A stretch of 64,000 nt of DNA from Candidatus Eiseniibacteriota bacterium (lineage in GTDB: Bacteria; Eisenbacteria; RBG-16-71-46; CAIMUX01; VGJL01), in NCBI GenBank assembly GCA_041946735.1, contig JBHGAY010000015.1:16170-80169 (forward strand), written 5' to 3'. Of this stretch, positions 29,101 through 47,974 are shown one piece after another (position 1 is the first letter of the stretch; each line of letters starts with the position of its first letter). The notes below the pieces were generated by a model, which saw nothing but the letters and a program-made list of their open reading frames with translations, was not told the DNA's origin and made no database searches. The position numbers and the translations under genes were made by a program.

Positions 29101-29521
29101 CGACCGAGCCGGATACGACTTCGGCCTGATGCCCGGCTCTCCGTGCAACGACGCGGTCTGCGGCCGCATCGGGGCCTGGCCTGTGGGGTGCGGAGTCATG
29201 GACGTGGAGGAAGGGGCGGCAGGACTGTCAGGACCGCCGCTCGATATCGCGGCCCCCGCGCCGAACCCGTTCGCGAGCGTCGCGAGGATTCCTTGCGCCT
29301 TCCGCTCCGCGGAGGCGGGTCGCGTCACGTTACGGATCTTCGACGCGAGCGGGCGTAGCGTCCGCCAGCTGATCGACGAAGTCCGGCCGGCGGGACGGTG
29401 GATCGCCGAGTGGGACGGTCGCAACGACGCCGGGGACAGGCTCGCCGCGGGCGTCTATCTCGCGCGCCTCGAGGCGCCGGGCGCGGAGGGGCGATCCGTC
29501 CGCATCGTCCTGCTGAAGTGA
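26114..29521 (+). CDS. Multidomain secreted C10-family cysteine peptidase (streptopain-like): two parallel beta-helix repeat modules and a C-terminal FlgD-Ig/T9SS-type sorting domain
   Basis: The RBS GGGAGG lies 6 nt before the ATG at 26114, followed by a signal peptide. The C10 catalytic Cys context VGCVATAAAQVLRYYQWP and His context NEGHAVVCDGW are present. Two roughly 300-aa beta-helix modules each begin DGxGDYxTIQAA. The C-terminus is WDGRNDAGDRLAAGVYLARL. Confidence 0.8.
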   Translation: MPRAVGRLLALFCFLLFSLMLAPRAGAVLATPEEMEAVARNWMALTVQQAGDWGGSERPEIAGMREIRSGGRLLGRVYSISPTGHIAVPVLKELPPVKCYSEKYDLDPGEPDGFPRLLREALGSMLDLYEATYGSLDASQPSGTETLLGEEHRQQWDGLLLAQPVFQRDLEGGRFQPLLDYGPLLSTEWHQSFPYNLLCPQGDGGQCVVGCVATAAAQVLRYYQWPPIGLGESQYYWEGDDSCGGGSQGDWLYADFSDPFDWQNMPADCDGGCTQQQRAALSELCYEVGVAFQMDYGVCGSGAYTSEAITVLPQYFRYDDTITEERRNSYSASGWSQMIRDEVAAGRPMLYAFRFSANEGHAVVCDGWRLSGGEEQYHINYGWGGSFSAWYAIDHLYHTDDPMQEVLYRGIRPSPGMRFTVAPDGGGDYATIQAAIDVSLDGDTIELLDGLYRGDGNRDLVFGGREITVRSRSDHPEDCTIDCEGNPGAHRAFLFTSGETAEARIRGVTITGGYPGIGQSGGAILCSNGASPVIENCVFEGNEVASGAGGGAIACAGAGASPRLVSCTFRGNQAQGPLGDGGAVAASGAGSAPLLDRCVLVRNTAGRRGGGISASSGAHPIVTGCTFHANGAASAQGAAVWVGASSAVDLERSILGFGASGGAVACEGAGANPSLSCCDVYGNAGGDWVGCIAGQSGMAGNLCADPLYCGIEQENLRLTAESPCAEENNPECGGIGAMPAGCGLVIVLADGTGDYPTIQAAMDAAEAGFVVELGDGVYRGPGNRDLDFRGKTLIVRSRSGDPDSCVIDCQGTAAENHRGFEFHSGEGSNAMVSGLTIRNGYMSTYSGGGISCTNSSNPTIEACNLYDNRSDVGGGGLFCFQSRPTIRDCTFAGNTGGSGGGAYLNSGSQPIRLDRCTFSGNAATAFGGAVFCYYADLVAENCIFAFSSQGSAFYCFYSSVDLRCCDVFGNVGGDYAACIAGESGADHNLSVDPQFCDRAGYDFGLMPGSPCNDAVCGRIGAWPVGCGVMDVEEGAAGLSGPPLDIAAPAPNPFASVARIPCAFRSAEAGRVTLRIFDASGRSVRQLIDEVRPAGRWIAEWDGRNDAGDRLAAGVYLARLEAPGAEGRSVRIVLLK

Positions 29522-31598: not shown

Positions 31599-32402
31599 GT
31601 GGACATTCTCAAGCGGGCTCTCGCTCCCATCACCGACCTCGCCTGGACCGAAATCGAAGCGGTCACTGCGAGCGCGCTTCGTACGCACATGATCGGCCGC
31701 CGGATCGTCGACGTCAGCGGACCCCACGGGTGGGACTTCGCCGCGATCGGTCTCGGCCGCCTGGACGTCGACCGGCAAAGCCTCGACGAGGTCTATTTCG
31801 GCGTCCATCAGGTGCAGCCGCTGGTCGAAGTACGTGTTCCCTTTTCGCTCGGGATCTGGGAGCTGGACAACGTGACGCGCGGCGCCGCCGACGTCGATCT
31901 GACGGCTGCGATCGACGCGGCGAAGCGGATCGCCGACTTCGAGGACGGCGCGATCTTCAACGGCTTCGAGAAGGCGAAGATCCAGGGTCTGCTTCACGCC
32001 TCTCCGCATCCCGCGATTGCCGTTCGACCGGACTCGGGGTCGCTCCTGGAGGGCGTTTCGAAGGCGCTCCTGGCGCTTCTCGACGCCGCGGTGCAAGGCC
32101 CCTACGTCCTCGTCCTCGGCCCGCGCCTCTTTCAGACGCTCGCCAACACTGCCTCCGGCTATCCGTTGCGCAAGCAGGTGGAGCAGCTCCTCGAAGGGAA
32201 AGCCATCTACCGGTCCGTGATCGAGGGAGGCGCGCTCGTCTCGAAGCGCGGGGGAGATCTGGAGCTCACGATCGGGCAGGACATCTCCCTCGGATATGAA
32301 TCACACGACACCAAACAGGTCCGCCTCTACCTGACCGAATCGTTCACGTTCCGGATTCTCGACCCTTCGGTCGCCGTACCGCTCACGCTCGCTTCCTCGT
32401 AG
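31599..32402 (+). CDS. Family 1 encapsulin nanocompartment shell protein (HK97 fold, linocin M18-like)
   Basis: GTG start 1 nt after the EncFtn stop, with AAGAGGAGG 5 nt upstream. MDILKRALAPITDLAWTEIE is the canonical encapsulin N-terminus. 267 aa. Confidence 0.85.
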   Translation: MDILKRALAPITDLAWTEIEAVTASALRTHMIGRRIVDVSGPHGWDFAAIGLGRLDVDRQSLDEVYFGVHQVQPLVEVRVPFSLGIWELDNVTRGAADVDLTAAIDAAKRIADFEDGAIFNGFEKAKIQGLLHASPHPAIAVRPDSGSLLEGVSKALLALLDAAVQGPYVLVLGPRLFQTLANTASGYPLRKQVEQLLEGKAIYRSVIEGGALVSKRGGDLELTIGQDISLGYESHDTKQVRLYLTESFTFRILDPSVAVPLTLASS

Positions 32403-33845: not shown

Positions 33846-35219
33846 TCAGGCTCTTCCCGCCGCGGCTCGCTCCTTCCTCTTTCTGTACGTTCGCGCCAGC
33901 TCGAAGAAGATGCCGAGGTCGCGCTCCAGGTGCGACTGCGTGCCGTCGAAATAGAAGATCCGGATCGGGATGCCGTCGTGGTCGCGGCTGATCTTCGGAT
34001 AGACCGCCTCGCTCACGATCCCATTCATGCAGCTGAACGGGCTGATGTCGACGATGCCGTCGCACCCCTTCGACCAGAAGTAGACCGCCTTCCCGGCGGA
34101 GATCACCATCTCCCCGTACACACCCGATGCGGGGAGATACGGTTCGGCGAGATCCGTGACGATCTTCATCCTCTCCGGTTCCTCGCGCCCCTCGAAGAGC
34201 GCGTGGAACGGGGCTGCCAGCGCGTGTTCGTCACTCCGCTGGAACGCCTCCTTCACGTACGCGCCCAGCATCCGTAACGAAAATGTCTGCCCTGCGTAGC
34301 GGATCCATTTTCTCCGCTGCTCGAGATTCGTGTAGTAGATCCACTCGCTGATGTCCGAGATCCAGGCTTCGCCTCCCTGCGCCTCGATCTTGCGGACCAT
34401 CTCCTCGTTGCTGAAGGTGTTCATCCGGCAGAAGATCTCGCCCACCACGCCGATCCGCAGCCGGTCCTCGGATCGTCGCGGGACCGACTCGAACGCGGCG
34501 GCCGCCTCGTCCATTGCCGACCGGAGCTTCGCGAGCGTCTCGCCCGCCGTCGCCCCACGTGTCTCGAGGATCGCGCAGACCGCGTCGATCGACCGGTCGT
34601 AGAGCCGGTCGGTCGTTCCCGCCTCGATCTCGTACGGTCGCACCCGCAACGTCGCCTTGCGGAGCAGGTCGGCGGCGACGAGGGCGCGCCACGACGCGCG
34701 CTGGACCGCCCGCGAGTCCATCCCCATCAGGTCATAGCCGCTGCCGCTCGTCGGGCTCACGATCGCCACGCTCTCTGCCCCGACCGAATCGAGCACACGG
34801 CGGAGGAACGGAGCGTACTGGCCGAAGCGGCACGGCCCCGGAGCGGTCGGCATGAAGAAGGCGAGCCGCTCCTTGGGGATCGGGCCGTCCTGCACGATCC
34901 GCAGGATGTCTCCGAGAGTGGCGCGCTCAGGGAAGCACTCCTCCCCGGACGTGTGGCGCCCGCCGAGTTCGATGGTCCGGCTGTCGGACGGCGGGATCGG
35001 TCGAGCATCGACACCGGCGCCGCGAATCGCCGCGGCGACGCAGGTCGCGGCGGAGCCGCTCATCCGGGGGATGAAGAGAACGCGCTCGGCGATCGGAACG
35101 CCACCCGGCGCGCGATCGTTTCGCGGCCGGACCGCGGCAGGGCGAGCGCGATCCGGATCGGCCGGCTCGCCGGCGGCTTCCGCCCTCGCGCCCTCGGGGA
35201 TGCGCGTCGTATCGCTCAC
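33846..35219 (-). CDS. Putative 2-hydroxyacyl-CoA dehydratase-family (HgdB/DUF-like, Cys-rich) protein, partner of the upstream activase
   Basis: GTG start with AAAGGAG 11 nt upstream, just after the activase stop. Conserved Cys sites CFPER, PGPCRFGQY, GEIFCRMN and SPFSCMNGI appear. The N-terminal portion of the 574-aa track ORF is low-complexity and is rejected. Confidence 0.5.
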   Translation of the reverse strand: MSDTTRIPEGARAEAAGEPADPDRARPAAVRPRNDRAPGGVPIAERVLFIPRMSGSAATCVAAAIRGAGVDARPIPPSDSRTIELGGRHTSGEECFPERATLGDILRIVQDGPIPKERLAFFMPTAPGPCRFGQYAPFLRRVLDSVGAESVAIVSPTSGSGYDLMGMDSRAVQRASWRALVAADLLRKATLRVRPYEIEAGTTDRLYDRSIDAVCAILETRGATAGETLAKLRSAMDEAAAAFESVPRRSEDRLRIGVVGEIFCRMNTFSNEEMVRKIEAQGGEAWISDISEWIYYTNLEQRRKWIRYAGQTFSLRMLGAYVKEAFQRSDEHALAAPFHALFEGREEPERMKIVTDLAEPYLPASGVYGEMVISAGKAVYFWSKGCDGIVDISPFSCMNGIVSEAVYPKISRDHDGIPIRIFYFDGTQSHLERDLGIFFELARTYRKRKERAAAGRA

Positions 35220-35242
35220 AGGGAAGGAAGCTCCTTTCGTCC

Positions 35243-38200
35243 TCACCGCGACGGACCGCCCGCCTCGACCGACCCCGATCGCGACACCGACCCGGATCGC
35301 GTAGCCGCCCCCGGTGATCGGGAGGCGCCGAGCAGTGCTGCGGCCTCCTCGACGACCGCCGAAGCGCCGCCGCGACGCTCTTCGCCTCCGCCTGCCGCCG
35401 CCGCGGCGGCCGCCCCGCTCCATCGCCGCAGCATCCCCTGGCTGTCCAGGTAGGCCTCGACGCGCGTCAGCATGCCTGCGTCGTTCGCGTGGCCGTCGAA
35501 CTGCAGGGTCAGGAAGGCGCGCCCGAAGGCGTCGCGGACGAAATGCTTGATGTAGGAGTCGGGGCCGCACTTGAAGTTCGTAATGTAAATGAGGTGGAGG
35601 CGCTCGCGGCGCGAGGCGACGATCGCCGCCGCGAGGATCTTCCTTCCATAGGCCCAGTACATGTTCGCATTGACCGCCTCGATGTCGGCGTCGCCGGAGG
35701 CGAGGAACTCGAGCGGCACCACGTTCGCCCCGTAGAGATCGCGGAGCTTGCGCGGCACGTCGAGGTTCACGACGGGGTCGAAGAGGTTGTACGGGCGGCC
35801 GGCCAGAAGGACGGCCGGCTCTCCGCTCGCATCCAGCTCCCGCATCGCCGTCTCGCCCGCCTCTCGAATCCTCCTCCGAAAGAGGGCGAGAGCCTCCTCA
35901 CCCGCGGCCAGGCCCCGCTTCACGGCCCCCTTCCGCACTCCATAGCGCCGGAGGGAATCGTGCAGCGGATCGACCAGCGCCCGCGGGCCGGCCTGGATGC
36001 GGAGTAGCGGGTGGACGATCCGTTTGGCCTGCGCCTCGAACCCGGCCGCCGCGCGCACGACGTAGGGGATCGTCATCCCCCAAGGACAGCAGAAGCTTTC
36101 GATCTCGTCGTGCGTCCGCTCTGTGTTGATCAGGTTCGGCAGGAAGACGAAGTCGGTCTCGGGCATTTCGAGCGCGAGCCGGACGTGGCCGTGGGCGACC
36201 TGGATCGGGAAGCAAGGCTCGGCGACCGCCGCCTCCACTCCATCGTGCGCGATCGATCGGTTCGTCTCCGGCGTCAGGCGGACCCCGAAGCCGGTCTCGC
36301 GCAGGAAGGCGTTCCAGAACGGAAACCGGTCGAAGAAGTAGAGGGAGCGCGGGAAGGCGACCGTGCCGCGTGGGCCGCTACCCGGCTCGTACCCCTCGAG
36401 GAGCCACTCCTTTCGCAACCGCACGAGATCGTCGATGACCGGCTCGTACTGGACCCGCGCCCGGCGCCTGTAGCGATCGCCGCACTGGTCGCCCCAGAAC
36501 GTCTTCTCTCCCTCGACCCGGAACTCCTGCATGTCGCAGCGGTTCTCGCACCCCTGGCACGTGAACTCCCGGATCCGGTAGTCGACGGTGCCGAGGTCCC
36601 ATCCACGGAACCGCGATGGCGCTCCGGAATCCGCGTTCGCCTTCTCCCAGGCGAGCAGGGCCGCGCCCACGGCTCCGACGACTCCGTTGTAGGGAGGGAC
36701 GATGATCTCCCGGTCGAGAATCTGCGCAAAAGCCGCTGCGACGGCGTCGTTGTAGGCCGTCCCCCCTTGGAAGAAGATCACGCCGTCGATCTTGCGGCCG
36801 CGCACGACGCGGTTGATGTAGTTCGTCGCGACCGAGAGAGCGAGTCCGGCCAGCAGATCCTCGGTCGACGCGCCACGCTGCTGGTAGGCGTTGACGTCCC
36901 GTTCCATGAAGACCGTGCAGCGTTCGCCGAGGCGCACGGGGGAGGTCGACGCGAGCGCCCGGCTCGCGAACTCCCCCTTGATGCAGACTCCCAGCTCCTC
37001 CGCCCGCTCCTCGAGGAACGACCCGGTGCCGGCCGCGCACGCTTCGTTCATCGCGAAGTCGACGACGATCCCGTCCTCGATGCGGATGTACTTCGCGTCC
37101 TGCCCGCCGATCTCGAAGATCGTATGGACCGGTGAGCCGAGCATCGTCCGCGCGATGAAGCTCGCGCCGGTCTTGTGAGCGGTGATCTCGTCGTTCACGG
37201 TGTCGGCGCCGACCAGCTCACCGATCAGCTCGCGACCCGAGCCGGTCGTCCCGACGGCCCGCACGGCGATCCGTTTTCCCAGCTCGCCGCGCAGCTCCGC
37301 GAGCGCCGCGGTGACGACCTCGATCGGCCGTCCCTGCGTGCGCGTGTAGATCTCGCGCACGATCTGGCCTTCGCGCGTCAGAAGAACCACGTTCGTGCTG
37401 ACCGACCCGATGTCGATTCCGAGAGCGACCTCGACCGGAGAGCCGTTCCCACTCGACGGCATCTCGTAAGGGAGCACGCGGTCCCGAAGCGCGATGACCT
37501 TGCCGAGGTCGAGCGGGCGGGCGCGCGGCATCGTGTCCGAGCCGAGGGACGCCTCCGACACTCGCTCCAGATCGAGAGGATGGTGCACGGCGTCGCTCGC
37601 TTCGAGGATTGCGCATCCGATCGCGGCATGCGCCGCGTGATGCTCCGGGACGATCAGGTCTTCGTCGAGATCGAAAACGTCGCGCAGCGCGCGCACCACC
37701 ATCCCATTGGCCGCGACCCCGCCGACGAGTAGAACCGGCGGCCGCGGGGTCCGTCCTTTCACTACGGCGGCTCGGAAGTTGCGCGCGACGGTTTCACAAA
37801 GTCCCCGGAGCACCTCCGGGGGCGAGTAGCCTTTCTGCTGCGCGTGGATCATGTCGCTCTTCGCGAAAACGGAGCAGCGCCCGGCGATCTTGGCGGCCCG
37901 CTCGCTCGCGAGCGCGATCGCGCCCAGCTCCTCGACCTCGTAGCGCAGTCGCCCTGCCTGCTGATCGAGGAACGAGCCGGTTCCGGCAGCGCAGTCTCCG
38001 TTGGTTGCGTAATCGGCGATCCCCAGCTCGCCCGATCCTGGGTCCCGCTCGAAGAAGAGCGCCTTCGAGGACTCCCCGCCGATTTCGAAGAGCGTCCGCA
38101 CCTCGGGTGCCAGGGCGCGCGTCGCCGCCGCGAGGCAGCGGAAGTCGTTCTCTTCCGGGATTCCGAAGCGCTCGCGAAGCAGGCGGGCTCCCGAGCCGGT

Positions 38201-38467
38201 CACACGGACCCCGTCGAACGCGCGGCCGCCGGCGCTCTCCCGTATCCGCTCCACGAGGAGCCGGGCGGCCTCGAGCGGACGTCCGTGGGTGCGCCGGTAG
38301 GTGGTGACGCGGAGAGATGCCGGCCCTCCGCCGGGAAGCTCGATATCGAGGAGGTCGGGGGACCAGAGATCCCCCGACGGCTCCTCGCGACGCTCCCGAT
38401 CCTCGCCGATCTTCAGCAGGGCGGCCTTGATGCTGACCGCGCCGATGTCGAGTCCCAAGTACAGCAA
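35243..38467 (-). CDS. CoA-substrate-specific enzyme activase: two tandem BadF/BadG/BcrA/BcrD-type ATPase domains plus a C-terminal DUF2229 domain
   Basis: Two ASKHA ATPase modules, each with LGIDIGxxS...EIGGxxxK...ACAAGTGSF motifs, are followed by about 470 aa of DUF2229 (CPWG, NFKCGPDS). A TTG start is proposed at 38467 with AGGAG 8 nt upstream. The first 45 aa of the track ORF are rejected. Confidence 0.75.
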   Translation of the reverse strand: MLYLGLDIGAVSIKAALLKIGEDRERREEPSGDLWSPDLLDIELPGGGPASLRVTTYRRTHGRPLEAARLLVERIRESAGGRAFDGVRVTGSGARLLRERFGIPEENDFRCLAAATRALAPEVRTLFEIGGESSKALFFERDPGSGELGIADYATNGDCAAGTGSFLDQQAGRLRYEVEELGAIALASERAAKIAGRCSVFAKSDMIHAQQKGYSPPEVLRGLCETVARNFRAAVVKGRTPRPPVLLVGGVAANGMVVRALRDVFDLDEDLIVPEHHAAHAAIGCAILEASDAVHHPLDLERVSEASLGSDTMPRARPLDLGKVIALRDRVLPYEMPSSGNGSPVEVALGIDIGSVSTNVVLLTREGQIVREIYTRTQGRPIEVVTAALAELRGELGKRIAVRAVGTTGSGRELIGELVGADTVNDEITAHKTGASFIARTMLGSPVHTIFEIGGQDAKYIRIEDGIVVDFAMNEACAAGTGSFLEERAEELGVCIKGEFASRALASTSPVRLGERCTVFMERDVNAYQQRGASTEDLLAGLALSVATNYINRVVRGRKIDGVIFFQGGTAYNDAVAAAFAQILDREIIVPPYNGVVGAVGAALLAWEKANADSGAPSRFRGWDLGTVDYRIREFTCQGCENRCDMQEFRVEGEKTFWGDQCGDRYRRRARVQYEPVIDDLVRLRKEWLLEGYEPGSGPRGTVAFPRSLYFFDRFPFWNAFLRETGFGVRLTPETNRSIAHDGVEAAVAEPCFPIQVAHGHVRLALEMPETDFVFLPNLINTERTHDEIESFCCPWGMTIPYVVRAAAGFEAQAKRIVHPLLRIQAGPRALVDPLHDSLRRYGVRKGAVKRGLAAGEEALALFRRRIREAGETAMRELDASGEPAVLLAGRPYNLFDPVVNLDVPRKLRDLYGANVVPLEFLASGDADIEAVNANMYWAYGRKILAAAIVASRRERLHLIYITNFKCGPDSYIKHFVRDAFGRAFLTLQFDGHANDAGMLTRVEAYLDSQGMLRRWSGAAAAAAAGGGEERRGGASAVVEEAAALLGASRSPGAATRSGSVSRSGSVEAGGPSR

Positions 38468-38649
38468 GAGAGGCGCTCCTGAACGGTCTCCCTGCCGCGC
38501 AGGTCGAGACCCGGCCGGTCCATACGAACGAGGGCGGCCAACCGGGGCTGAGAATACGTTCGGCCTGATGCGTTGGCAAGGACGCCCGACCGGTCGCCGC
38601 ATCGCAGCTCCATGCCCGCCGATGCCCGCCGGCGGGCCGTGTCAGGCCC

Positions 38650-38725
38650 GGGCAGGCCGGCTCTCCTAGCACGCCGGCTCTCCGTGCGGGGTGCTCTCCT
38701 GGCAGGCCGGCTCTCCGTGCAGGCC
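38650..38725. repeat. Direct repeats GGCAGGCCGGCTCTCC / GCCGGCTCTCCGTGC (2-3 copies) in the 310-bp region upstream of the activase gene
   Basis: Seen directly at about 38652, 38672 and 38702. Confidence 0.45.
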
Positions 38726-38779
38726 GCTCCGGCTCGCCTTCGCGGCTGGCTTTCCCGGCTCGTTTCCGTGGCTCGCTTC

Positions 38780-39430
38780 TTAGCGAGGAGGCAGCGCAGA
38801 GCCGAGTTCATCGGCGAGGAGCCTGGCTTTGTGCGCCAGGTTCGCTGCGGCCTGGAGATCCTCGTGATCGAACGCCTTCCGGGCCTGGTCGATCAGGCCG
38901 CGCACGGTGCGAAGCTTCTGCTTCTGTTCTTCAGTCTGGACGCGGTCGACGGAGCGCGTGACCGACAGCTCGGCGATGCGCAGATCGTCCTCGGTCACCG
39001 CCTTCAGCCGCAGCTTCTCGGCATCGGTGAGTGCGACCGAGATCGACGACTGTCCAGCGCCGCCTTCCTCGAGGAGGGTATCCGCCGGAGAGGTCTCGGT
39101 CGTTTCGGACCCCGGCGGGCCCGCTTCGGCCTGCGGTCTCTCGCCCGGCTCGGCCGTCCGCCGTGAAGCGCCGTTGCTGCCCCCTCGAGAGGGCGCGCCG
39201 GTCGATCCCGATGCGCTCGAGGGCGGATGGAAGGCTGCGGAATCGATCGGGGCAGCTTCGGACTGCGCTCGGATCGAGTCGGCAATCTCGGCGGACCAGG
39301 TGGGAGGCGGGGGAGCATCCGGAGGACGGAACAGCCTCTTCACGCTGCCGCATCCCGAGCCGCCAGCCGTGACCGCGAAGGCCAGAAGCACGGCGGGGGG
39401 GAGGAAGCGCCGTCCAAAGAGGCGGGTCAA
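38780..39430 (-). CDS. Hypothetical lipoprotein, last gene of the sigma-54 two-component operon
   Basis: Its ATG overlaps the histidine kinase stop in an ATGA. The signal carries the lipobox GGSGCGS. A Pro/Ser-rich linker leads to a helical C-terminal domain. Confidence 0.6.
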   Translation of the reverse strand: MTRLFGRRFLPPAVLLAFAVTAGGSGCGSVKRLFRPPDAPPPPTWSAEIADSIRAQSEAAPIDSAAFHPPSSASGSTGAPSRGGSNGASRRTAEPGERPQAEAGPPGSETTETSPADTLLEEGGAGQSSISVALTDAEKLRLKAVTEDDLRIAELSVTRSVDRVQTEEQKQKLRTVRGLIDQARKAFDHEDLQAAANLAHKARLLADELGSALPPR

Positions 39431-41280
39431 GCGGGCACGCCACGGGAATCACGCAACGGCGATCCCCGTCCCGCCGACAACCGTACCGGCACGCGCAACG
39501 TCACGGACGTTCCCTCGCCCACGCGGGACTCGATCTTCATGTCTCCCGCGTGCATGTGCATCGCCTGCATCACGAGCGCCAGGCCAACCCCCGTCCCCTC
39601 GCCGCGCGTCGTGAAGTAGAGGTCCGCGACCTTGTCGAGGTGCTCGGGGGGGATCCCGGGGCCGGTGTCGGAGACGACGATCTGAATCTCATTCCCCTCG
39701 GTGCGGCTCCGCACCAGGACCCGTCCCTCTCTGGAGGGGAGCGCCTGGATCGCATTGCGGACGACGTTCTCGACCGCTTGACGGAGCACCGATCGATCCC
39801 CTTGAGTCTCGGGAATCGCCGGATCCGGATGGAACTCCAGCTCCAGCCCGGCGAGGTTCGCCTCGGCTTCCATGCCCTGCTGGATCTCCTCGAGCAGATC
39901 GTTGACGTCGAGCGGAGCATACACGAGCTGTCGCAGGCGGGCGACCTTCAGGAAGCCGCTGACCGCGCGCTGCAGCCGCTGGATTTCGTCCTGCGCGGTA
40001 CGTACGTGGCTATCGACCTCCTCCATGCTCAGATTGCGCGATTGCCGGAGGATGCCCAGCTCCAGGTTGATCGTCTGGAGCGGGTTGCGGATCTCGTGGG
40101 CCACACCGGCCGCCATCTGTCCGAGCCGGGTCAGCACTTTCGAATGGTCGATCAGTAGATGCAGCTCCTCGAGCGCCGTCGTCTCCTTGAACTCGATCAG
40201 GACGCCCGCGGGAGCGTCCGCGCCCGTGATGCGGTGACCGATCGCGACGTGCGCGGGGGCGTTCCCGGAGGGCGGCAACGGGACCGAGAAGGTCCCTTCC
40301 TCCGGTGATGCGTTGTCGTAGAGCCGGTCCGCCAGCACGCGCACCGGATGATCGGGCGCCAGCAGCTCATCGATCCGCTTCCCGCGCGAGGATTCGAGGT
40401 CGATTCCGAGGAGTCCTGCCGTGGTCGCGTTGATGAGAACGATCTCGCGGCGCGGGCCGAGCGTCAGGACACCTTCCCCGAGAAGCTCGACCGTCTTGCG
40501 GAAGGAGCCGAGATGCTCGCGATCCGCGCTCTCTTTCGAGAACTGCTCGGAAAGGAGGTTCAGGTCACGAGCGAGCTGGCTGAATTCGTCGACTCCCTCG
40601 GGGATCCGGCTCTCGTAGCGGCCCTCGCGCATCGCGGCGACGCTCGTCTCGAACTGGCGGAGGCGGCGCGTGAGGAGATAGGCGAGCGCGAGGCCGAACA
40701 GCAGAGCCAGCCCGAGCTGGAAGCCCGCGGCGAGCGCCCCACGGCGAGCGACCTCCGCCATCCGCTCCTTCAAGAGAACGCTCGCGATCGCGATCCGGAT
40801 CGTCGCGAACGGAGTGCCGTCCAGCAGCAGCGGGGTTTCGGTCTGGTAGACGTCCGCCGAACGGATCACGTCCCGGAAGAGGGCGAGCGTCTGCTGGAGC
40901 GTCTTCGCCTCGGGCAGCGGCGGGAGCGGGTCCGCCGGGCGGTCGACCATCCCCCGCTCGGTGCTGGCGATGACGACGTCGCTGGAATCACAAATCGCGA
41001 CGAAGACGACGGCGGGGGCCTGAGCGGTCGCGGCCTGCATCACGAGTGGAAGACGGGGATCGGACCGGATGCGGCGGATCAGGTCTTCCCCCCGGTCCTT
41101 TCCGGCGAGCCAGCCGATCTGCAGCAGCGCGGACTGCGAGATCAAGGCGCTCTCGCTCCGGACTCCGTCGAGCGCCATGCGCATGACGTAGGTCATCTCG
41201 AGGAGTCCCGAGATCGAGACGAGGACGACGGCAAGCAGGAGCAGCGCGAGGATCTGGCGCGCGCTCCACTCGATTTTCAC
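39427..41280 (-). CDS. Sensor histidine kinase (NtrB-like): periplasmic sensor, HAMP, HisKA and HATPase_c domains
   Basis: Its GTG start overlaps the response regulator stop. The H-box AHEIRNPLQ is present, and the N/G1/G2 boxes read NAIQAL...DTGPGIP...GTGVGLALV. Confidence 0.85.
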   Translation of the reverse strand: MKIEWSARQILALLLLAVVLVSISGLLEMTYVMRMALDGVRSESALISQSALLQIGWLAGKDRGEDLIRRIRSDPRLPLVMQAATAQAPAVVFVAICDSSDVVIASTERGMVDRPADPLPPLPEAKTLQQTLALFRDVIRSADVYQTETPLLLDGTPFATIRIAIASVLLKERMAEVARRGALAAGFQLGLALLFGLALAYLLTRRLRQFETSVAAMREGRYESRIPEGVDEFSQLARDLNLLSEQFSKESADREHLGSFRKTVELLGEGVLTLGPRREIVLINATTAGLLGIDLESSRGKRIDELLAPDHPVRVLADRLYDNASPEEGTFSVPLPPSGNAPAHVAIGHRITGADAPAGVLIEFKETTALEELHLLIDHSKVLTRLGQMAAGVAHEIRNPLQTINLELGILRQSRNLSMEEVDSHVRTAQDEIQRLQRAVSGFLKVARLRQLVYAPLDVNDLLEEIQQGMEAEANLAGLELEFHPDPAIPETQGDRSVLRQAVENVVRNAIQALPSREGRVLVRSRTEGNEIQIVVSDTGPGIPPEHLDKVADLYFTTRGEGTGVGLALVMQAMHMHAGDMKIESRVGEGTSVTLRVPVRLSAGRGSPLRDSRGVPA

Positions 41281-42671
41281 GATCCGGCCTGCGCTCGGGT
41301 TTCGGCGCCCGCTCGATAGCTGCGCAGTTTCATGTGCAAGGTCTTGGTGCTGATCCCCAGCAGACCCGACGCGCGCGTCTTGTTGCCCCCGCACGCTTCG
41401 AGGGTTTCGAGGATCACTGCCTTCTCTACCTCCGAGAGAGGGGTGCCGACCGAAACCGAGAGACTTCCGGCCTTCGTCGGGTTCTTCCGCACGCTCGGCC
41501 GCACCGCCGGGGGAAGTTGGGACGGCTGAATCTCTTCCTCCTTGGAGAGGATGACGGCGCGCTGGATCGCATTACGCAGCTCACGGACGTTGCCGGGCCA
41601 GTCGTACTGCATGAGCAGCTGGAGCGTCTCCTCGGCAAAGCCCACGACCGGCTTCTGGTTCTCCTGCGCGTACTCTTCGAGGAAGCTCTGCGCGAGGAGC
41701 GGAATGTCCTCCGGGCGCTCCCGCAGCGGTGGAATGTGCAACGTGAAGACGTTCAGCCGGAAATACAGGTCCTCACGGAAATGCCCCGCTCCCATGCGCT
41801 GCTCGACATCCATGTTCGTTGCGGCGAGAACGCGTACGTCGACCGGAGTCTCGCGCTGGCCGCCAACGCGGCGGACCTTCCGTTCCTCGAGGACGCGCAA
41901 CAGCTTGCTCTGCAATGCGGCCGGCATCTCCCCGATCTCGTCGAGAAAGAGAGTCCCTTTGTCGGCGAGCTCGAACGTCCCCGGCCGCGACGCGGTCGCG
42001 CCGGTGAAGGCCCCCTTCTCGTGCCCGAAGATCTCGCTCTCGAGAAGCGTCTCCGGAATCGCGGCGCAGTTGATCGCGACGAACCTCGCTGCGCTTCGGG
42101 GGCTCAGGTTGTGGATCGCCCGCGCCACCACTTCCTTGCCGGTTCCGCTCTCTCCCGTAATGAGCACGGAGGCGGAGGAAGGAGCGATCTGATCGATCAT
42201 CCGGTAGAGCTCGAGCATGGGAGGCGACTTCCCGATCAGACTCTGGAATCGTCCGCTCCGAACCATCTCCCGGCGGAGGTCCAGGACTTCCTGCCGCATC
42301 GACGCGCGCTCGAGCCCCTTGAAGATCACCGTCGCGAGGCGCTCCGGATCGACCGGCTTGACCAGGTAGTCGTAGACGCCGCGACGGGTCGCTTCGACCG
42401 CGCTGTCGATCGTGCCGTGCGCTGTAAGGACAACGAGGGTCGCCTCGATTCCGCGGTCGCTCAGGTCCGAGATGAGGTCGAGCCCGCTCCTTCCCGGGAG
42501 CTGCAGGTCGGTGATGACGAGGTCCGGGGGAGACGTAAGTGCTTTCTGAAGTGCTTCTTCTGCGCCTTCGGCGAGGTCGACGGTGTGTCCCATCCCCGAG
42601 ATGATCCGCGCGAGTCCCTTGCGGATCGGCTCCTCATCGTCGACGACGAGAATCCGAGTCTCCTTCGGCAT
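41277..42671 (-). CDS. Sigma-54-dependent response regulator (NtrC family: REC, AAA+ sigma-54 activator and Fis-type HTH)
   Basis: The REC domain has D in DLQLPGRSG. The Walker A is GESGTGKE. The GAFTGA-like loop and ESELFGHEKGAFTGA are present. The C-terminal HTH reads RASGLLGISTKTLHMKLR. Confidence 0.9.
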   Translation of the reverse strand: MPKETRILVVDDEEPIRKGLARIISGMGHTVDLAEGAEEALQKALTSPPDLVITDLQLPGRSGLDLISDLSDRGIEATLVVLTAHGTIDSAVEATRRGVYDYLVKPVDPERLATVIFKGLERASMRQEVLDLRREMVRSGRFQSLIGKSPPMLELYRMIDQIAPSSASVLITGESGTGKEVVARAIHNLSPRSAARFVAINCAAIPETLLESEIFGHEKGAFTGATASRPGTFELADKGTLFLDEIGEMPAALQSKLLRVLEERKVRRVGGQRETPVDVRVLAATNMDVEQRMGAGHFREDLYFRLNVFTLHIPPLRERPEDIPLLAQSFLEEYAQENQKPVVGFAEETLQLLMQYDWPGNVRELRNAIQRAVILSKEEEIQPSQLPPAVRPSVRKNPTKAGSLSVSVGTPLSEVEKAVILETLEACGGNKTRASGLLGISTKTLHMKLRSYRAGAETRAQAGS

Positions 42672-42919
42672 GTGATCCCCCTCCCTGGAATCGCCGACGA
42701 TACTCCAAGCCGGACCTGACCGGGAAGAAAGGTAACACTACGCACCTTTCATCCCGCAAGCACAAGCGTCGCTGGTCTCGCGGATGGACGAACTCCGGGA
42801 CGCCTGGAGAGTTAAGGCGCTGAAGCAGATCAGCTTGCAGGCGCCTCCCTCAGCGTGCGCTCCATGGCACGCCGCTGGTTAGTGCCTAAGGCATGGACCG
42901 AGTGCGAGGAGGTAACTGC

Positions 42920-43576
42920 GTGAGCAACTGGAGAGCGCCCGTCTGGATGGCCGTCGTTGGACTCAGCGTATTGGGACTCGGGTCGGGATGCGCCACCCGG
43001 GGTTACGTGAGAAGCCAGGTAGCGGACGCCCGAGCCGACCTTCAGCAGCAGATCGAAGATGTTCGGAACTCGTCCAGCCAGGCGCTCGAGCGAGCGGAAC
43101 TGGCCTATGGGCAGTCGAACGAAGCCAAGGACTTGGCACTCGGCCGCGTGGGATTCCATGAGGTAACCCAGTACACGTTGCGATTCGACTTCGACAGCGA
43201 TGAGCTCGACGGTGAAGCGATAGAGACACTGAACCAGACCGCAGACCAGATCCAGAGCCGTCCTGATGTTCTGGTCGACGTGTATGGGTTCGCCGATCGG
43301 ACGGGATCCGAACGATATAACTACGAGCTAGGCCAGCGTCGTGCGAACGAGGTGATGCGCTATCTCCTCGACCGCATGCCCAGCCAGCTGAACCGCTTCG
43401 CCGCGGTCTCCTACGGCGAGGACAAGCCTCTCGGGGAGCAGGAAACCCCCGAGGAACGGGCGGCCAACCGCAGGGTCGTGGTTTCTCTCATCGAAAGGGT
43501 CCCGTTGGAGCAACAGAACCAGGCGCAGGCGATCCCCGAAGAGGTCCCTGAAGAGGGATCGCAGGCATCGGAATAG
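42920..43576 (+). CDS. OmpA/Pal-family peptidoglycan-associated lipoprotein
   Basis: GTG start with GAGGAGG 7 nt upstream. The lipobox is GLGSGC. The OmpA_C motifs read FDFDSDEL...YGFADRTGSERYNYELGQRRANEV...NRRVVV. Confidence 0.8.
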   Translation: MSNWRAPVWMAVVGLSVLGLGSGCATRGYVRSQVADARADLQQQIEDVRNSSSQALERAELAYGQSNEAKDLALGRVGFHEVTQYTLRFDFDSDELDGEAIETLNQTADQIQSRPDVLVDVYGFADRTGSERYNYELGQRRANEVMRYLLDRMPSQLNRFAAVSYGEDKPLGEQETPEERAANRRVVVSLIERVPLEQQNQAQAIPEEVPEEGSQASE

Positions 43577-43615
43577 CGACCGAGACGCGATAGAAAGAGT
43601 TCGAAAAGAAGACGC

Positions 43616-43687
43616 GGACTCCTCCCGGAGCGGGACGTTGTGCATGCCCCTCGCCCGTCCCCTCTGCGGAGGAGTCCAAATTTTTTG
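43616..43687 (+). terminator. Rho-independent terminator after the OmpA gene
   Basis: Long imperfect hairpin with a 10-bp outer stem GGACTCCTCC...GGAGGAGTCC, followed by AAATTTTTT. Confidence 0.6.
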
Positions 43688-43844
43688 CCCCGATTGACGC
43701 CCTTCCCCTGGGTTCCCTACTCTCTCCTTCGTTCGCATGCACGGCGCTGCGGCGCCAGGCCGGCTGCCCGCGATTCCTTTGGGGGCCGGGAGGGTCGGGT
43801 TGGAGTCAACCGCTTGCGGCGCAAGCGGTTCGAGGAGGTGGATC

Positions 43845-45026
43845 GTGAAGCGCAACGTCGTGTCGATGCCGGGAGACGGAATCGGGAAGGTCGTCCTCCC
43901 CGAGGCGATCCGAGTCCTGGACGCGGTCGGGTTCGAAGCGAACTACATCCATGGCGATATCGGCTGGGAGTTCTGGTGCAGCGAGGGCAACGCCCTCCCG
44001 GACCGGACCATCTCGCTCCTCGAGGAGCACAAGCTCGGCCTCTTCGGCGCGATCACGTCCAAGCCCAAGGACAAGGCGGAGGCGGATCTCTCGCCAGCGT
44101 TGAAGGGGAAGGGGCACGTCTACTACAGCCCCATCGTCACGATGCGGCAGAAGTTCGATCTCGACATCTGCATCCGCCCCTGCATCGCCTTCGAAGGCAA
44201 CCCGCTGAACTGGATCCGCAAGGACGGTCGCGGGAGCATCGAGGAGCCGAAGGTCGACGTCGTGATCTTCCGGCAGAACACCGAAGGGCTCTATAGCGGC
44301 ATCGAGTGGACGAACCCGCCCGAGAACGTCCGCGCCGCCCTCGCGAGCCATTCGAAGTGGAAGATGTACCAAAAGGTCGCAGGACCGGATCTCGCCGTGT
44401 CGACGCGCGTCATCACGCGCCCAGCCGCCGAAAGGATCTGCCGCAACGCGTTCGAGTACGCGAAGAAGTTCGGCTACAAGTCGGTGACGATCTGTGAGAA
44501 GCCGAACGTCCTTCGTGAAACCTCCGGGATGATGGAGTCCGTGGCGAAGCAGGTGGCGAAGGACTTTCCGGGCATCCCTCTCTGGTCGGTGAACATCGAC
44601 GCGCTCATGATGTGGCTCACGAAGAACCCCGAGGCGTACGGGGTGATCGTGGCGAGCAACATGTTCGGCGACATCATCAGCGACGGCTTCGCGGGATTGG
44701 TCGGCGGGCTCGGGTTCGCATGCAGCGGCAACATCGGCCGCAATTGCGCGGTCTTCGAACCGACCCACGGGTCCGCGCCGAAGTACGAGAAGCTTGATCC
44801 TTCGATCGTCAATCCGATCGCGATGATCCTTTCCGCGGTGATGATGCTCGAGCACGTCGGGGAGACCGCGAAGGCTTCGCGGATCAAGAGCGCGATCGCC
44901 GCAGTGATCCGCGAGGGGAAAGTCCGTACATACGACATGATGCGGCTCACGGGCGGCCCCGACGTGTTCGGGAAGGGCGCCGTGACCACGCAGCAGATGA
45001 CCGACGCAATCCTGGCACATCTCTAG
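43845..45026 (+). CDS. Isocitrate/isopropylmalate dehydrogenase-family beta-decarboxylating dehydrogenase
   Basis: GTG start with GAGGAGG upstream. The N-terminus is MPGDGIGKVV. The signature is NMFGDIISD, and the dimerisation and active-site Asp residues are present. About 393 aa. Confidence 0.75.
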   Translation: MKRNVVSMPGDGIGKVVLPEAIRVLDAVGFEANYIHGDIGWEFWCSEGNALPDRTISLLEEHKLGLFGAITSKPKDKAEADLSPALKGKGHVYYSPIVTMRQKFDLDICIRPCIAFEGNPLNWIRKDGRGSIEEPKVDVVIFRQNTEGLYSGIEWTNPPENVRAALASHSKWKMYQKVAGPDLAVSTRVITRPAAERICRNAFEYAKKFGYKSVTICEKPNVLRETSGMMESVAKQVAKDFPGIPLWSVNIDALMMWLTKNPEAYGVIVASNMFGDIISDGFAGLVGGLGFACSGNIGRNCAVFEPTHGSAPKYEKLDPSIVNPIAMILSAVMMLEHVGETAKASRIKSAIAAVIREGKVRTYDMMRLTGGPDVFGKGAVTTQQMTDAILAHL

Positions 45027-45138
45027 TCCATCGACCGTCTGTCGATCGATCGTCTATTGATCGTCCATCGATCGTCGTCCGTCGTCGTCGGGTCGTCGAC
45101 CGGCCGCTCTCCTCGGCCGGCAATGGGGGAGGTGGAGG

Positions 45139-46356
45139 ATGCCACACGCTGCCGAGGCGGGGCGCCGCGGAGCGGACGTTCGCTCGGACTGCTGGATCTC
45201 GATCACGCCCGAGTCCTCGGGCGGCGCGCGTCTCTCGATCCGGAGCAAGGTCGCTGCGATGTACGGAGGCGCAATCCAGGAGCAGATCGCGTCAGGGCTC
45301 GCGGAGCTTTCCATCCGTGACGCGACGGTCGAGGTCGAGGATGCCGGCGCGCTCCCGTGGGTCATCGCCGCTCGTCTGGAAGCGGCCGCCCGGCGCGCCT
45401 ACGGGCCAGCGCTTGCCGGGCGCCTGCTCCCTCCCGCGAGTCCCGGGGCGAGCGCGACGACGGAGCGGGAGCGCTTCCGGCGCTCGCGCCTCTACCTACC
45501 CGGCAACGAACCGAAGTTCATGGTCAACGCCGGCCTGCACGGCGCCGACGGCATCATCCTCGATCTCGAGGACTCGGTAGCGCCGGCCGAGAAGGACGCG
45601 GCGCGGCTCCTCGTCCGCAACGCGCTCCGGTCGGTCGACTTCGGCGCGTGCGAGCGGATGGTCCGGATCAACCAGCTGCCGATGGGCTTCGACGATCTCG
45701 AGGCGGTGATCCCGGAGAACGTCCACGTCGTCCTGATCCCGAAGTGCGAGTCGGCGCAGCACGTGCACGACGTGGAGGCGAAGATCCGGAGCCTCCGCCG
45801 CTCCGACGATCCGCAGGTCTTCCTGATGCCGATCCTCGAGACGGCGCTCGGAGTCTTGAACGCCTTCGAAATCGCGACGGCGAGCCGGGCGATCGTGGCA
45901 CTGACGATCGGACTGGAGGACTACACGGCGGACATCGGGACCGCGCGCACCGAGCAGGGAGCGGAGTCGCTGTGGGCACGCTCGATGGTGATCAACGCCG
46001 CGCGCGCGGCCGGCGTCGCCCCGATCGACAGCGTCTACTCGGACGTGATGAACACCGAGGGGCTGCGGGCGAGCGTCCTCGAGGCGAAGGCGCTCGGGTT
46101 CGAGGGGAAGGGCTGCATCCATCCCGGGCAGATCCGCGTGATCCACGAGGGGTTTGCCCCTACCGCGGCCGAGATCGAGCGGGCGACGAAGATCGTTCGC
46201 GCGTTCGAGGATGCCGAGGCGAAGGGGCTCGGGGTGGTGTCGCTCGGAAGCAAGATGATCGACGCCCCGGTCGTGAAGAGGGCGAACCGGACGGTTCGCC
46301 TCGCGATCCGCTCGGGGAAGCTCGCGGAGGGCTGGAGGGACGCGCAGCAGGCGTGA
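45139..46356 (+). CDS. Fusion of citrate lyase acyl-carrier subunit (CitD) and citrate lyase beta subunit (CitE, HpcH/HpaI citryl-CoA lyase)
   Basis: The N-terminal 95 aa are CitD-like (RSDCWISI around the prosthetic-group Ser; IAARLEAAARRA). A Pro/Ala linker follows, then CitE (RRSRLYLPGNEPKF...LDLEDSV...PKCES...LETALGV...IGLEDYTADIG). No internal start codon separates the two. The RBS is GGAGGTGGAGG. Confidence 0.7.
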   Translation: MPHAAEAGRRGADVRSDCWISITPESSGGARLSIRSKVAAMYGGAIQEQIASGLAELSIRDATVEVEDAGALPWVIAARLEAAARRAYGPALAGRLLPPASPGASATTERERFRRSRLYLPGNEPKFMVNAGLHGADGIILDLEDSVAPAEKDAARLLVRNALRSVDFGACERMVRINQLPMGFDDLEAVIPENVHVVLIPKCESAQHVHDVEAKIRSLRRSDDPQVFLMPILETALGVLNAFEIATASRAIVALTIGLEDYTADIGTARTEQGAESLWARSMVINAARAAGVAPIDSVYSDVMNTEGLRASVLEAKALGFEGKGCIHPGQIRVIHEGFAPTAAEIERATKIVRAFEDAEAKGLGVVSLGSKMIDAPVVKRANRTVRLAIRSGKLAEGWRDAQQA

Positions 46357-46414
46357 ATCGGCTCGCGGCCGGCTGCCCGCAGGGGGGGAGGGGCCGGAGG
46401 GGGAGAGGGAAGCG

Positions 46415-47974
46415 ATGGCGCAGAAGCTGGTCAAGAATGCGGTAGGTCGGGAAGTCCCGGTCGAGATCAACGGAGAGCCTGCGGTCGCCTACCAGGGGGT
46501 CGGGAAAGACCGGCCGTCCGGACGGCGCGCGGCGCCGCCGATCGCCACCTGCGCGGACTATCCGGCCGACGGGAACAAGATCGTGCCCGATCTGCGCGCG
46601 GCGCTCGAGAAGGCCGGGCTGCGCGACGGGATGACGATTTCGACGCACCACCACTTCCGCAACGGCGACCTGGTCGGGAACCGCGTGTTCGACATCGCGG
46701 CCGAGATGGGCGTGAAAGACCTGCGGTGGTTCCCGAGCGCCTCGTTCCCTTGCCACGCGCCGATGATCCGGCATCTCGAGAGCGGCGTGATCCATCACAT
46801 CGAGGGGTCGATGAACGGTCCGCTCGGCGACTACACCTCGCAGGGGAAGATGCGCGGCATGGCGGTGCTCCGCTCGCACGGCGGCCGCTATCAGGCGATC
46901 CAGGACGGCGAGGTCCATGTCGACATCGCCGTCATCGCGGCGCCGGAGGCCGACCCGTTCGGCAACGCGAACGGCCTCCATGGCCCATCAGCCTGCGGCG
47001 GCCTCGGGTTTGCCGTTGCCGACGCGGAGTACGCCGATCGCGTCGTGGTCGTCACCGACAACCTGGTCCCGTTCCCGTGCGTGCCGTGGCAGATCAGCGG
47101 CAACCGCGTCGACTCGGTCGTCGTCGTCGACCGGATCGGCGACCCGGCGCAGATCGTCTCCGGGACGACGCAGATCACCCGCAGCCCGGACCGGCTGCTG
47201 ATCGCCGAGATGGTCGCCCGCTTCCTGGACGCGTCCGGGATTCTGCGCGATGGCTTCTCCTTCCAGGCAGGGGCCGGCGGGACGGCACTCGCCTTCGCGA
47301 TCTACCTAAAGGAGATGATGAAGGAGCGGGGGATCCGGGCCCGCTTCATCCGGGGAGGCTCGACGAAGTACCTGGTCGAGATGCTCGAGGAGGGGTTGAC
47401 CGATTACATCCTCGACGGGCAGACCTTCGACCTCTTCGGCGTGCGCTCGATGGGGACGAACCCGCGCCACGTGAACACGACGCCGTTCACCTCCTACAAC
47501 TATCACGGCAAGGGGAACTTCGCCTCGATGGTCGACGCGGTCGTGCTCGGAGCGACGGAAGTGGACGTCCACTTCCACGCGAACGTCGTCACCCACTCCG
47601 ATGGCCGCCTGCTCCACGGAATCGGTGGATGGCAGAACTGCCTGTTCTCCGGATGCACGATCCTCGCGCTCCCTTCGTTCCGCGATCGCATCCCGGTGAT
47701 CCTCGATTCCGTGACCACGTTGTGCGGCCCCGGCGAGCTGATCGACGTGATCGTCACGGAGCGCGGGATCGCGATCAATCCGCGCCGGACCGACCTGCTC
47801 GATGCCGTCCGTGGAAGCGATCTCCCGATCCGCATGATCGAGGAGATCCAGGCGGACGTCGACCGGATCTGCGGCGGGCGCCCGACGAAGGCGAGGATGG
47901 GGGAGAAGGTCGTCGCGGCGATCAAGTGGGTCGACGGGACGGTGATCGACTCGGTGAGGCAGGTGCTCGCGTAG
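46415..47974 (+). CDS. citF: Citrate lyase alpha subunit (citrate CoA-transferase, CitF)
   Basis: 519 aa with CitF-family motifs throughout (DGMTISTHHHFRNGD, SMNGPLGDY, GGWQNC). It lies immediately downstream of the citDE fusion. Confidence 0.8.
   Translation: MAQKLVKNAVGREVPVEINGEPAVAYQGVGKDRPSGRRAAPPIATCADYPADGNKIVPDLRAALEKAGLRDGMTISTHHHFRNGDLVGNRVFDIAAEMGVKDLRWFPSASFPCHAPMIRHLESGVIHHIEGSMNGPLGDYTSQGKMRGMAVLRSHGGRYQAIQDGEVHVDIAVIAAPEADPFGNANGLHGPSACGGLGFAVADAEYADRVVVVTDNLVPFPCVPWQISGNRVDSVVVVDRIGDPAQIVSGTTQITRSPDRLLIAEMVARFLDASGILRDGFSFQAGAGGTALAFAIYLKEMMKERGIRARFIRGGSTKYLVEMLEEGLTDYILDGQTFDLFGVRSMGTNPRHVNTTPFTSYNYHGKGNFASMVDAVVLGATEVDVHFHANVVTHSDGRLLHGIGGWQNCLFSGCTILALPSFRDRIPVILDSVTTLCGPGELIDVIVTERGIAINPRRTDLLDAVRGSDLPIRMIEEIQADVDRICGGRPTKARMGEKVVAAIKWVDGTVIDSVRQVLA

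Follow-up and report, generated by a model that had tools for sequence, protein, structure and literature searches.

We examined a 64-kb stretch of DNA (hereafter the window; GC content ~68%) from contig JBHGAY010000015.1 of a Candidatus Eiseniibacteriota bacterium, in which two consecutive minus-strand genes encode a 1074-aa protein with two ATPase modules and a 457-aa partner. We conclude, with a probability of roughly 0.68, that this pair encodes a split, self-contained reductase of the PlsA/PlsR type (Ger-like), an ATP-dependent and oxygen-sensitive Fe-S enzyme that would convert membrane glycerolipid esters to ethers. Judged by its sequence, the locus is a divergent two-gene representative of the already known PlsA/PlsR-Ger family. 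An earlier note on this DNA had described an orphan activase pair with no assigned substrate, which is out of date, as the architecture was assigned to PlsA/PlsR and Ger in 2021-2022. [quoted passage not shown]

Domain architecture of the gene pair

According to Jackson et al. (2021), the two-gene plsA-plsR operon of Clostridium perfringens (CPE1194/CPE1195, ~4.3 kb in total) encodes an anaerobic plasmalogen synthase of the BCR/HAD family, with an Act1-Act2-Red1 protein followed by a Red2 protein of ~400 aa. In many bacteria, among them Enterococcus, Lactococcus, Bifidobacterium and Listeria, the synthase is encoded as a single PlsA of ~1400 aa. The Ger proteins of Thermotoga maritima (Tmari_0479) and Desulfatibacillum alkenivorans make 1-alkyl glycerol ethers and consist of two PF01869 domains, one PF09989 domain and then small D/H matches (Sahonero-Canavesi et al. 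2022). We refer to the core of two BcrAD_BadFG modules plus DUF2229 as BBD.

The plsA-like gene of the window (35243..38467, minus strand) encodes, in order, ATPase module 1, ATPase module 2, a four-cysteine linker, a HAD-like DUF2229 domain and a low-complexity Ala/Gly/Ser tail. As the earlier note had proposed, Pfam finds BcrAD_BadFG in two stretches (E 3.6e-73) together with DUF2229 (PF09989; E 4.5e-46, 157.7 bits vs a cutoff of 29.4). This combination equals the published BBD core of Ger and PlsA and therefore supports membership in the PlsA/PlsR-Ger family. The sole NCBIfam match is a generic 'acyl-CoA dehydratase activase' domain model.

ATPase module 1 (residues ~1-300; 37568..38467, minus strand) is the second Pfam stretch and carries C159 (CAAGTG) and C198 (RCSVFA), and module 2 (residues ~345-610; 36638..37435, minus strand), the best Pfam stretch, carries C477 and C517. 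All four cysteines are conserved in 62/62 orthologs from related loci, the set on which cysteine conservation in the large protein was scored. A search of PDB sequences returned the HadI, HgdC, MbdQ/MbdP and DCCP-R ATPases, with module 1 matching residues 77-255 of MbdP and module 2 matching the activators HadI (E 1e-32) and HgdC (E 1e-31). C159/C198 and C477/C517 are the counterparts of the pair of cluster ligands supplied by every HgdC-type subunit.

Between ATPase module 2 and DUF2229 lies a C637-x2-C640-x3-C644-x17-C662 motif (36482..36559, minus strand), invariant in all 62 orthologs and present with the same spacing in a Listeria homolog. An AlphaFold2 model of this region is of low confidence and shows beta-hairpins. 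The site may bind an additional Fe-S cluster or zinc; the papers we consulted do not mention it. The DUF2229 domain itself, of HAD/BCR/DCCP fold (residues ~690-1010; 35438..36400, minus strand), contains C752 (AEPCFP; 62/62 orthologs), C794 (CPWG; 62/62) and C967 (FKCGPD; 61/62). When its profile was compared with PDB sequences, no reductase subunit was matched, only an ATPase remnant.

The plsR-like partner gene (33846..35219, minus strand) begins with a GTG codon at 35219, 23 nt past the activase stop codon, and would supply the second HAD-fold reductase/dehydratase domain. The earlier note had called the partner a Cys-rich protein of 458 aa; its length is 457 aa, with seven cysteines in all, yet four of these are invariant among 36 aligned sequences: C95 (GEEC.P), C130 (GPCRFGQY), C264 (GEIFCR) and C397 (SPF.CMNG). 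The proposal that both genes start at non-ATG codons proved correct. The TTG start of the large gene, at 38467, is preceded by AGGAG, and start codon and N-terminus are common to locus L001 of a second Eisenbacteria genome (LSFYLGIDLGAVSIK vs LLYLGLDIGAVSIK). For the partner, AGGAG lies at 35235-35231, the GC content at third codon positions rises only from ~35220 onwards, which fits the GTG start, and 35 homologs have N-termini consistent with that codon.

No Pfam family was detected in the partner even at E<=10, which includes the HGD-D family (PF06050) expected from its earlier description as an HgdB-type subunit, and no NCBIfam family was found. Neither the single sequence nor a profile matched any solved chain in the PDB. 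In a profile-profile comparison, the partner aligned to the part of the large protein that holds DUF2229 (88.7% probability, E 2.5e-6), pairing GEEC(95)FP with AEPC(752)FP and GPC(130)RFGQ with C(794)PWGQ. On this alignment, the partner is a remote DUF2229 paralog; its homologs number in the thousands, and some of them bear a precomputed DUF2229 match. Both reductase domains show the HAD/BCR/DCCP fold, that of the HAD alpha and beta subunits. The remote paralogy of partner and DUF2229 therefore suggests, by analogy with HadB/HadC, that the two may form a pseudo-heterodimer.

The link to single-chain synthases comes from fused relatives. In a search of 1.84 billion representative proteins, the partner profile matched, end to end, the C-terminal ~400 aa (residues ~1000-1420) of many proteins of 1350-1480 aa (E 1e-100 to 1e-74). 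All five fused relatives scanned with Pfam contain BBD, and two of the five add sub-threshold HGD-D matches (25-27 bits vs 28.4). Cluster look-ups of 20 fused representatives returned uncultured taxa only. Two tandem ATPase modules with two cysteines each, a DUF2229 domain after them and a second reductase domain, the domain set of PlsA/PlsR and Ger, are thus all found in the window pair.

For a named homolog, we used the single 1475-aa gene of Listeria monocytogenes, taken from a PLSDB chromosome piece labelled as a plasmid. (The PLSDB entries NZ_CP030101.1, of 2.9 Mb, and NZ_LR134399.1 are chromosome-sized or chromosome fragments of L. monocytogenes, a caveat for plasmid statistics.) The large protein aligns with residues 1-962 of this homolog (28% identity, E 1e-109) and the partner with residues 980-1352 (24% identity, E 1e-32), so that the window pair is colinear with it over all four domains and the four-Cys linker. 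A review reports Listeria plsA/plsR orthologs to be apparently active under anaerobic growth.

The C. perfringens enzyme has the same two-gene order, with an Act1-Act2-Red1 protein followed by a ~400-aa Red2, and BCR/HAD-type Fe-S chemistry (Jackson et al. 2021); the sequence alignments were made with the Listeria homolog. The PlsAs of lactic acid bacteria reach 48-55% (PlsA) and 41-42% (PlsR) identity to the C. perfringens proteins, compared with only 28% and 24% between the window pair and Listeria. The linker motif CX2CX3C...C is shared with Listeria PlsA, whereas the fourth invariant cysteine of the partner, C264, is lacking there; C264 (codon at 34428-34430, minus strand) is kept in all 36 aligned split-clade sequences, and the fused protein of Listeria carries Val in its place (GEILVK). 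The host also differs from the known PlsA-PlsR hosts in being an uncultured, high-GC Eisenbacteria lineage. With Ger the window pair shares the BBD core and two detectable activation domains, but the verified Ger enzymes are single chains of ~150 kDa with small C-terminal D/H Pfam matches, whereas the second domain here is a separate gene with no Pfam match.

Relatives of the pair and their neighbouring genes

Partial proteins from metagenome-assembled genomes (MAGs) of Candidatus Eisenbacteria match the partner, and a portion of the large protein, with 100% identity. We surveyed 86 loci of relatives and clustered the 711 open reading frames (ORFs) flanking them. The ATPase gene lies directly upstream of the partner gene in 77 of these loci, across at least eight phyla that include Acidobacteriota, Planctomycetota, Actinomycetota, KSB1, Krumholzibacteriota, Nitrospinota and Gemmatimonadota. 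The partner occurs with no adjacent activase in eight.

These counts bear on whether the 1074-aa protein is instead a free-standing activase for a dehydratase or reductase encoded elsewhere, followed by an unrelated gene. Public annotation would agree with this, as it names these proteins only 'CoA activase', 'acyl-CoA dehydratase activase(-related)' or 'hypothetical', and so would the eight partner genes without a neighbouring activase. We consider it highly improbable: the 1074-aa protein itself has a HAD-fold domain with three conserved cysteines, the partner is adjacent in 77 of 86 loci, where the stop codon of one gene often overlaps the start codon of the next, and the two proteins are fused in many relatives.

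Only two families recur among the flanking ORFs, one a mixture of two-component genes and the other a group of radical-SAM genes. The former, although the top neighbour cluster (15 loci), is made up of generic response regulator and histidine kinase paralogs at varied positions, and we judged it to be no more than chance. Five radical-SAM neighbours were scored with NCBIfam; three pass NF045702, the equivalog model of tetraether lipid synthase (Tes; 478-572 bits vs a cutoff of 450), and the other two are radical SAM/SPASM proteins without a named match.

A Tes gene falls inside the fetched flanks of 11 of the 86 loci and, in most of these, right beside the pair. It lies just downstream of the partner in seven (L004:9284-11191, L012, L014, L015, L019, L054 and L076), six of which are labelled Planctomycetota or Phycisphaerae, and upstream of the large gene in four (L021, L032:4891-6546, L041:5068-6681 and L061:4037-5635), two of which are labelled Acidobacteriota. 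The large ATPase gene is not adjacent to the Tes-bearing partner locus in L004, L012, L014 and L015, and in L054 it lies ~3.5 kb upstream. In the Planctomycetota loci, another radical SAM/SPASM gene often comes after Tes.

This linkage to Tes provides independent evidence that the clade may act on membrane lipids, evidence that is supportive and not defining. It is a further likeness to Ger that relatives of the window pair co-occur with synthases of membrane-spanning lipids. The linkage also fits the route put forward by Halamka et al. (2022), who proposed that the PlsAR homologs of Solibacter usitatus, together with Tes, build brGDGTs (bacterial branched tetraether lipids). Homologs in Acidobacteria already go by the name PlsAR, and proteins from Solibacteraceae and Bryobacterales MAGs are ~49-51% identical to both window proteins. 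The S. usitatus homologs probably belong, by similarity, to the same clade as the window pair and are genomically associated with Tes, but their role in brGDGT synthesis is itself a proposal, and the window holds no Tes within its 64 kb.

We noted the split clade, with its extra invariant partner cysteine, in Eisenbacteria, Acidobacteriota, Planctomycetota, Actinomycetota and KSB1. A far-reaching extension, which we think unlikely to hold in full, is that this clade is the long-sought enzyme of brGDGT ether bonds, that Eisenbacteria are unrecognised producers of ether lipids and that a few lineages have placed the enzyme under an envelope-sensing sigma-54 system with its own lipoprotein.

Several points weigh against the assignment to ether-lipid synthesis. 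Identity to Listeria, the only named plsA homolog compared, is low, and this comparison uses a surrogate in place of the verified proteins Q8XL48/Q8XL47 (C. perfringens), AGL49404 (T. maritima) and SHJ90043 (D. alkenivorans), so that what it indicates is homology, not orthology. Nothing related to lipids was found in the 64-kb window, and we found no lipid literature for Eisenbacteria. The public names quoted above do not mention lipids either. Finally, the published criteria for a 'Ger homolog' are loose (Sahonero-Canavesi et al. 2022), and the family may therefore include enzymes with other substrates.

The pair could thus be a reductase or dehydratase of the HAD/BCR/DCCP superfamily that acts on a non-lipid substrate (for example an acyl-CoA or aromatic compound or, as with the double-cubane DCCP, a small molecule) and resembles PlsA/PlsR in architecture only. 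Such an enzyme would account for the 24-28% identity to the Listeria homolog and for a window without lipid genes, and an AMP-binding or CoA-ligase gene adjoins isolated relatives (L006, L005). Nevertheless, we regard a non-lipid substrate as unlikely, given the full colinearity with the plsA homolog, four-Cys linker included. No CoA-transferase or acyl-CoA gene recurs among the 711 neighbouring ORFs, where the only recurrent metabolic genes are radical-SAM genes, most of them Tes. DCCP and HAD enzymes have separate activators and Pfam HGD-D matches, whereas the partner has no HGD-D match, and we found no other function reported for BBD proteins in the papers we consulted.

HgdAB/HadBC with HgdC/HadI, the class I benzoyl-CoA reductases and DCCP/DCCP-R share with the window proteins ATPase modules with two cluster cysteines and, presumably, ATP-driven electron injection. 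DCCP itself is a homodimer in which six cysteines ligate an [8Fe-9S] cluster, served by a separate DCCP-R. In contrast to the 2-hydroxyacyl-CoA dehydratases, benzoyl-CoA reductases and DCCP, however, the window activator is present as two tandem copies joined to a single reductase domain, there is no Pfam HGD-D match, and the neighbours are not genes of CoA metabolism. The separate homodimeric activator and the CoA-transferase or acyl-CoA context of a 2-hydroxyacyl-CoA dehydratase were not found at this locus.

The product cannot be read from sequence at present, as the literature does not distinguish alkyl from alkenyl ether producers on this basis. Two detectable activation domains have been tentatively tied to alkyl-ether producers (Sahonero-Canavesi et al. 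2022), and the two detectable ATPase modules of the window protein, together with the Tes neighbours of its relatives, lean weakly towards alkyl ethers.

The upstream two-component module and the spacer

The pair forms the end of a head-to-tail series of five minus-strand genes: response regulator, histidine kinase, lipoprotein-like ORF, large protein and partner. The gene content and coordinates given earlier for this series agree with the Pfam domains and ORF junctions. The first gene (41277..42671, minus strand) encodes an NtrC-family, sigma-54-dependent response regulator (Pfam Response_reg, Sigma54_activat and HTH_8) that falls below every NCBIfam equivalog cutoff. The second (39427..41280, minus strand) encodes a sensor histidine kinase with HAMP, PAS, HisKA and HATPase_c domains by Pfam; we infer its start from the 4 nt that it shares with the end of the response regulator gene, stop codon included, an arrangement also seen in L001. 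The third is a 216-aa lipoprotein-like ORF (38780..39430, minus strand) with a signal peptide containing a Cys, a linker rich in Pro and Ser and a helix conserved at the C-terminus, and it has no Pfam family. Each junction among these three genes is a 4-nt overlap, in the window and in L001, and the three upstream genes therefore appear to be one translationally coupled operon.

The earlier note had suggested looking for a conserved association of this module with the enzyme. The module accompanies the enzyme in 3 of the 86 loci (L001, L059 and L078), which does not bear out such an association. Identity of L001 to the window is 76% for the response regulator, 49% for the histidine kinase and 33% for the lipoprotein; in the Bryobacterales loci L059 and L078, two genes are inserted between module and enzyme. 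The Eisenbacteria loci L003 and L007 lack the module, as do the remaining loci. A search from the lipoprotein side returned only four homologs, and in three contigs the next gene is not the enzyme: the histidine kinase-lipoprotein modules of L088, L089 and L090 precede unrelated genes (0/3 with the enzyme). The C-terminal helix of the lipoprotein has the pattern R.LIDQA...A..LA.KAR.LA.EL (window 38780-39430, minus strand; L001:6108-6695; L059:3863-4468). Given its translational coupling to the histidine kinase and its recurrence in both Eisenbacteria and Bryobacterales, the lipoprotein may serve the sensor as an accessory component.

The spacer between the lipoprotein gene and the large gene is 312 bp long and contains a patchwork of short tandem repeats (38612..38778): a 10-bp unit in two copies, a 17-bp unit in 4.5 copies, which holds the motif pointed out earlier, and a 13/26-bp unit. 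Tandem Repeats Finder places the 17-bp array at 38652-38726 (72% matches), flanked by the 10-bp and 13/26-bp arrays. Exact copies of the motif GGCAGGCCGGCTCTCC lie at 38651 and 38701, and a copy with two mismatches at 38668; across the window, it has 11 matches with up to three mismatches, compared to 4.0 expected. The repeats noted earlier therefore exist, but their proposed role as elements resembling an upstream activating sequence (UAS) finds no backing, since the units are direct, degenerate and not palindromic and their sequence is not conserved in L001. At the same place after its lipoprotein stop codon, L001 has a different 13-bp tandem repeat (CCCGATGAGCCAG in two copies; L001:6690-6720). 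Unrelated tandem duplications after the lipoprotein stop codon in both Eisenbacteria genomes could possibly reflect replication slippage. The spacer gave no signal of RNA structure (folding z-score 0.18), no Rfam family and no terminator.

We looked for a sigma-54 -24/-12 element across 38468-38790, which takes in the 38468-38640 interval singled out by the earlier note, using a consensus search and a weighted GG-N10-GC scan, and found none. The best GG-N10-GC site in the spacer, CGGCGGGCATGGAGCT, scores 15.5/21, below the 19.5 that other parts of the window attain by chance. In 15 relatives, L001, L059 and L078 among them, the sequence upstream of the gene gave nothing convincing or above chance. 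A candidate at 39581-39566, TGGCGCTCGTGATGCA, was rejected as a sigma-54 site: it lies inside the histidine kinase coding sequence and is not kept in the matching L001 sequence. The best sigma-54-like site of the whole window, TGGCCCCCATCTTGCA at 51317-51332 (minus strand), has one mismatch to TGGCAC-N5-TTGCW and lies far from the gene pair.

The spacer does contain a candidate sigma-70-like promoter, TTGCCA-17-TATTCT (38551..38579, minus strand), ~84 nt upstream of the TTG start. It is the sole promoter-like match in the spacer region, compared to 0.0 expected in shuffled sequences. A counterpart, TTGCGA-18-TACTCT, can be read at a similar position upstream of the start in L001; the pairwise alignment of window and L001 does not line up the two elements.

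In its fullest form, the sigma-54 model would have the NtrC-type response regulator bind the 17-bp repeats as a UAS and drive a sigma-54 promoter of the activase gene. The arrangement invites it: the module lies directly upstream on the same strand, with a repeat-bearing 312-bp spacer between, the order of module and enzyme recurs in L001 and, with the two inserted genes, in L059 and L078, and an activator of sigma-54 type diverges from the enzyme gene in L011 and L017. We nonetheless find this model unlikely. No GG-N10-GC element rises above chance in the spacer and none is convincing in the 15 relatives, a sigma-70-like promoter with an L001 counterpart is present, the repeats are degenerate and not conserved, the module is found in three loci only, being absent even from other Eisenbacteria, and related histidine kinase-lipoprotein modules occur with no enzyme after them. 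Transcription is most likely from the pair's own sigma-70-type promoter or by read-through from the upstream operon, as far as the sequence indicates. The sigma-54 two-component system next to the pair could possibly control it, but we found no positive support for this.

The divergent arrangement in the Acidobacteriota loci involves a ~700-aa protein (L011:4606-6693 and L017:4545-6713, both minus strand) whose gene diverges ~210-230 nt upstream of the large gene and which aligns over ~330 aa, at 33% identity, to the sigma-54-type regulator of the window. No -24/-12 site was found in the intergenic regions of L011 and L017.

Other neighbours in the window, which include OmpA, isocitrate dehydrogenase, citrate lyase, encapsulin and MscL, are not informative about the pair. 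The OmpA-family, isocitrate dehydrogenase and citrate lyase genes (the last as a beta/ACP fusion plus alpha; 42893-47974, plus strand) diverge from the response regulator gene, and L001:1-2249 keeps the isocitrate dehydrogenase and citrate lyase part at the matching relative position. The adjacency of the two-component system to the enzyme may therefore be, in part, plain conserved gene order. On the other side of the pair lie an encapsulin shell gene (31599-32402, plus strand; Linocin_M18, E 2.6e-82) and a gene (25862-29521, plus strand) for a likely secreted protease of 1219 aa, which combines Peptidase_C10 with a right-handed beta-helix and, at its C-terminus, FlgD_ig.

Proposed mechanism and implications

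We propose that the two fused HgdC-like ATPase modules would form an intramolecular pseudo-dimer holding one [4Fe-4S] cluster on C159/C198 and C477/C517, a cluster suggested by the structures of HgdC and HadI. ATP hydrolysis would then drive a low-potential electron into the Fe-S cluster or clusters of the DUF2229-partner pseudo-heterodimer, whose putative ligands are C752, C794 and C967 of DUF2229 and C95, C130, C397 and the clade-specific C264 of the partner. The electron may travel via the invariant CX2CX3CX17C site. The conserved cysteines, the fold and the paralogy behind this scheme are observed here, and the heterodimer and the electron path are our inference from them.

The cluster would bind and reduce the sn-1 acyl carbonyl, and reduction followed by dehydration would yield an alk-1-enyl ether (plasmalogen), with possible further reduction to a saturated alkyl ether. 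For this ether chemistry we rely on published work on PlsAR of C. perfringens and the Ger enzymes of T. maritima and D. alkenivorans.

Features worth noting are a second subunit invisible to Pfam, the invariant CX2CX3CX17C site, the clade-specific fourth cysteine of the partner and the occurrence of Tes beside or near the genes of relatives. The first of these matters for surveys of domain architecture, which see only BBD and may wrongly call the second domain missing when the second reductase is a separate, Pfam-unrecognised gene. A 2026 preprint (bioRxiv 10.64898/2026.06.23.733905) takes hits with BBD alone, in MAGs of Acidobacteriota, Chloroflexota and Latescibacterota, to be without a second reduction domain; in the loci examined here, by contrast, that domain is a Pfam-invisible gene directly downstream. 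Annotators should treat an 'acyl-CoA dehydratase activase' followed by a 'hypothetical protein' as a pair of PlsA/PlsR type. If our assignment is true, this Eisenbacteria genome provides for the anaerobic synthesis of membrane lipids with ether links, and a poorly known soil and sediment phylum would join the candidate sources of the bacterial ether lipids that are used as palaeoclimate proxies.

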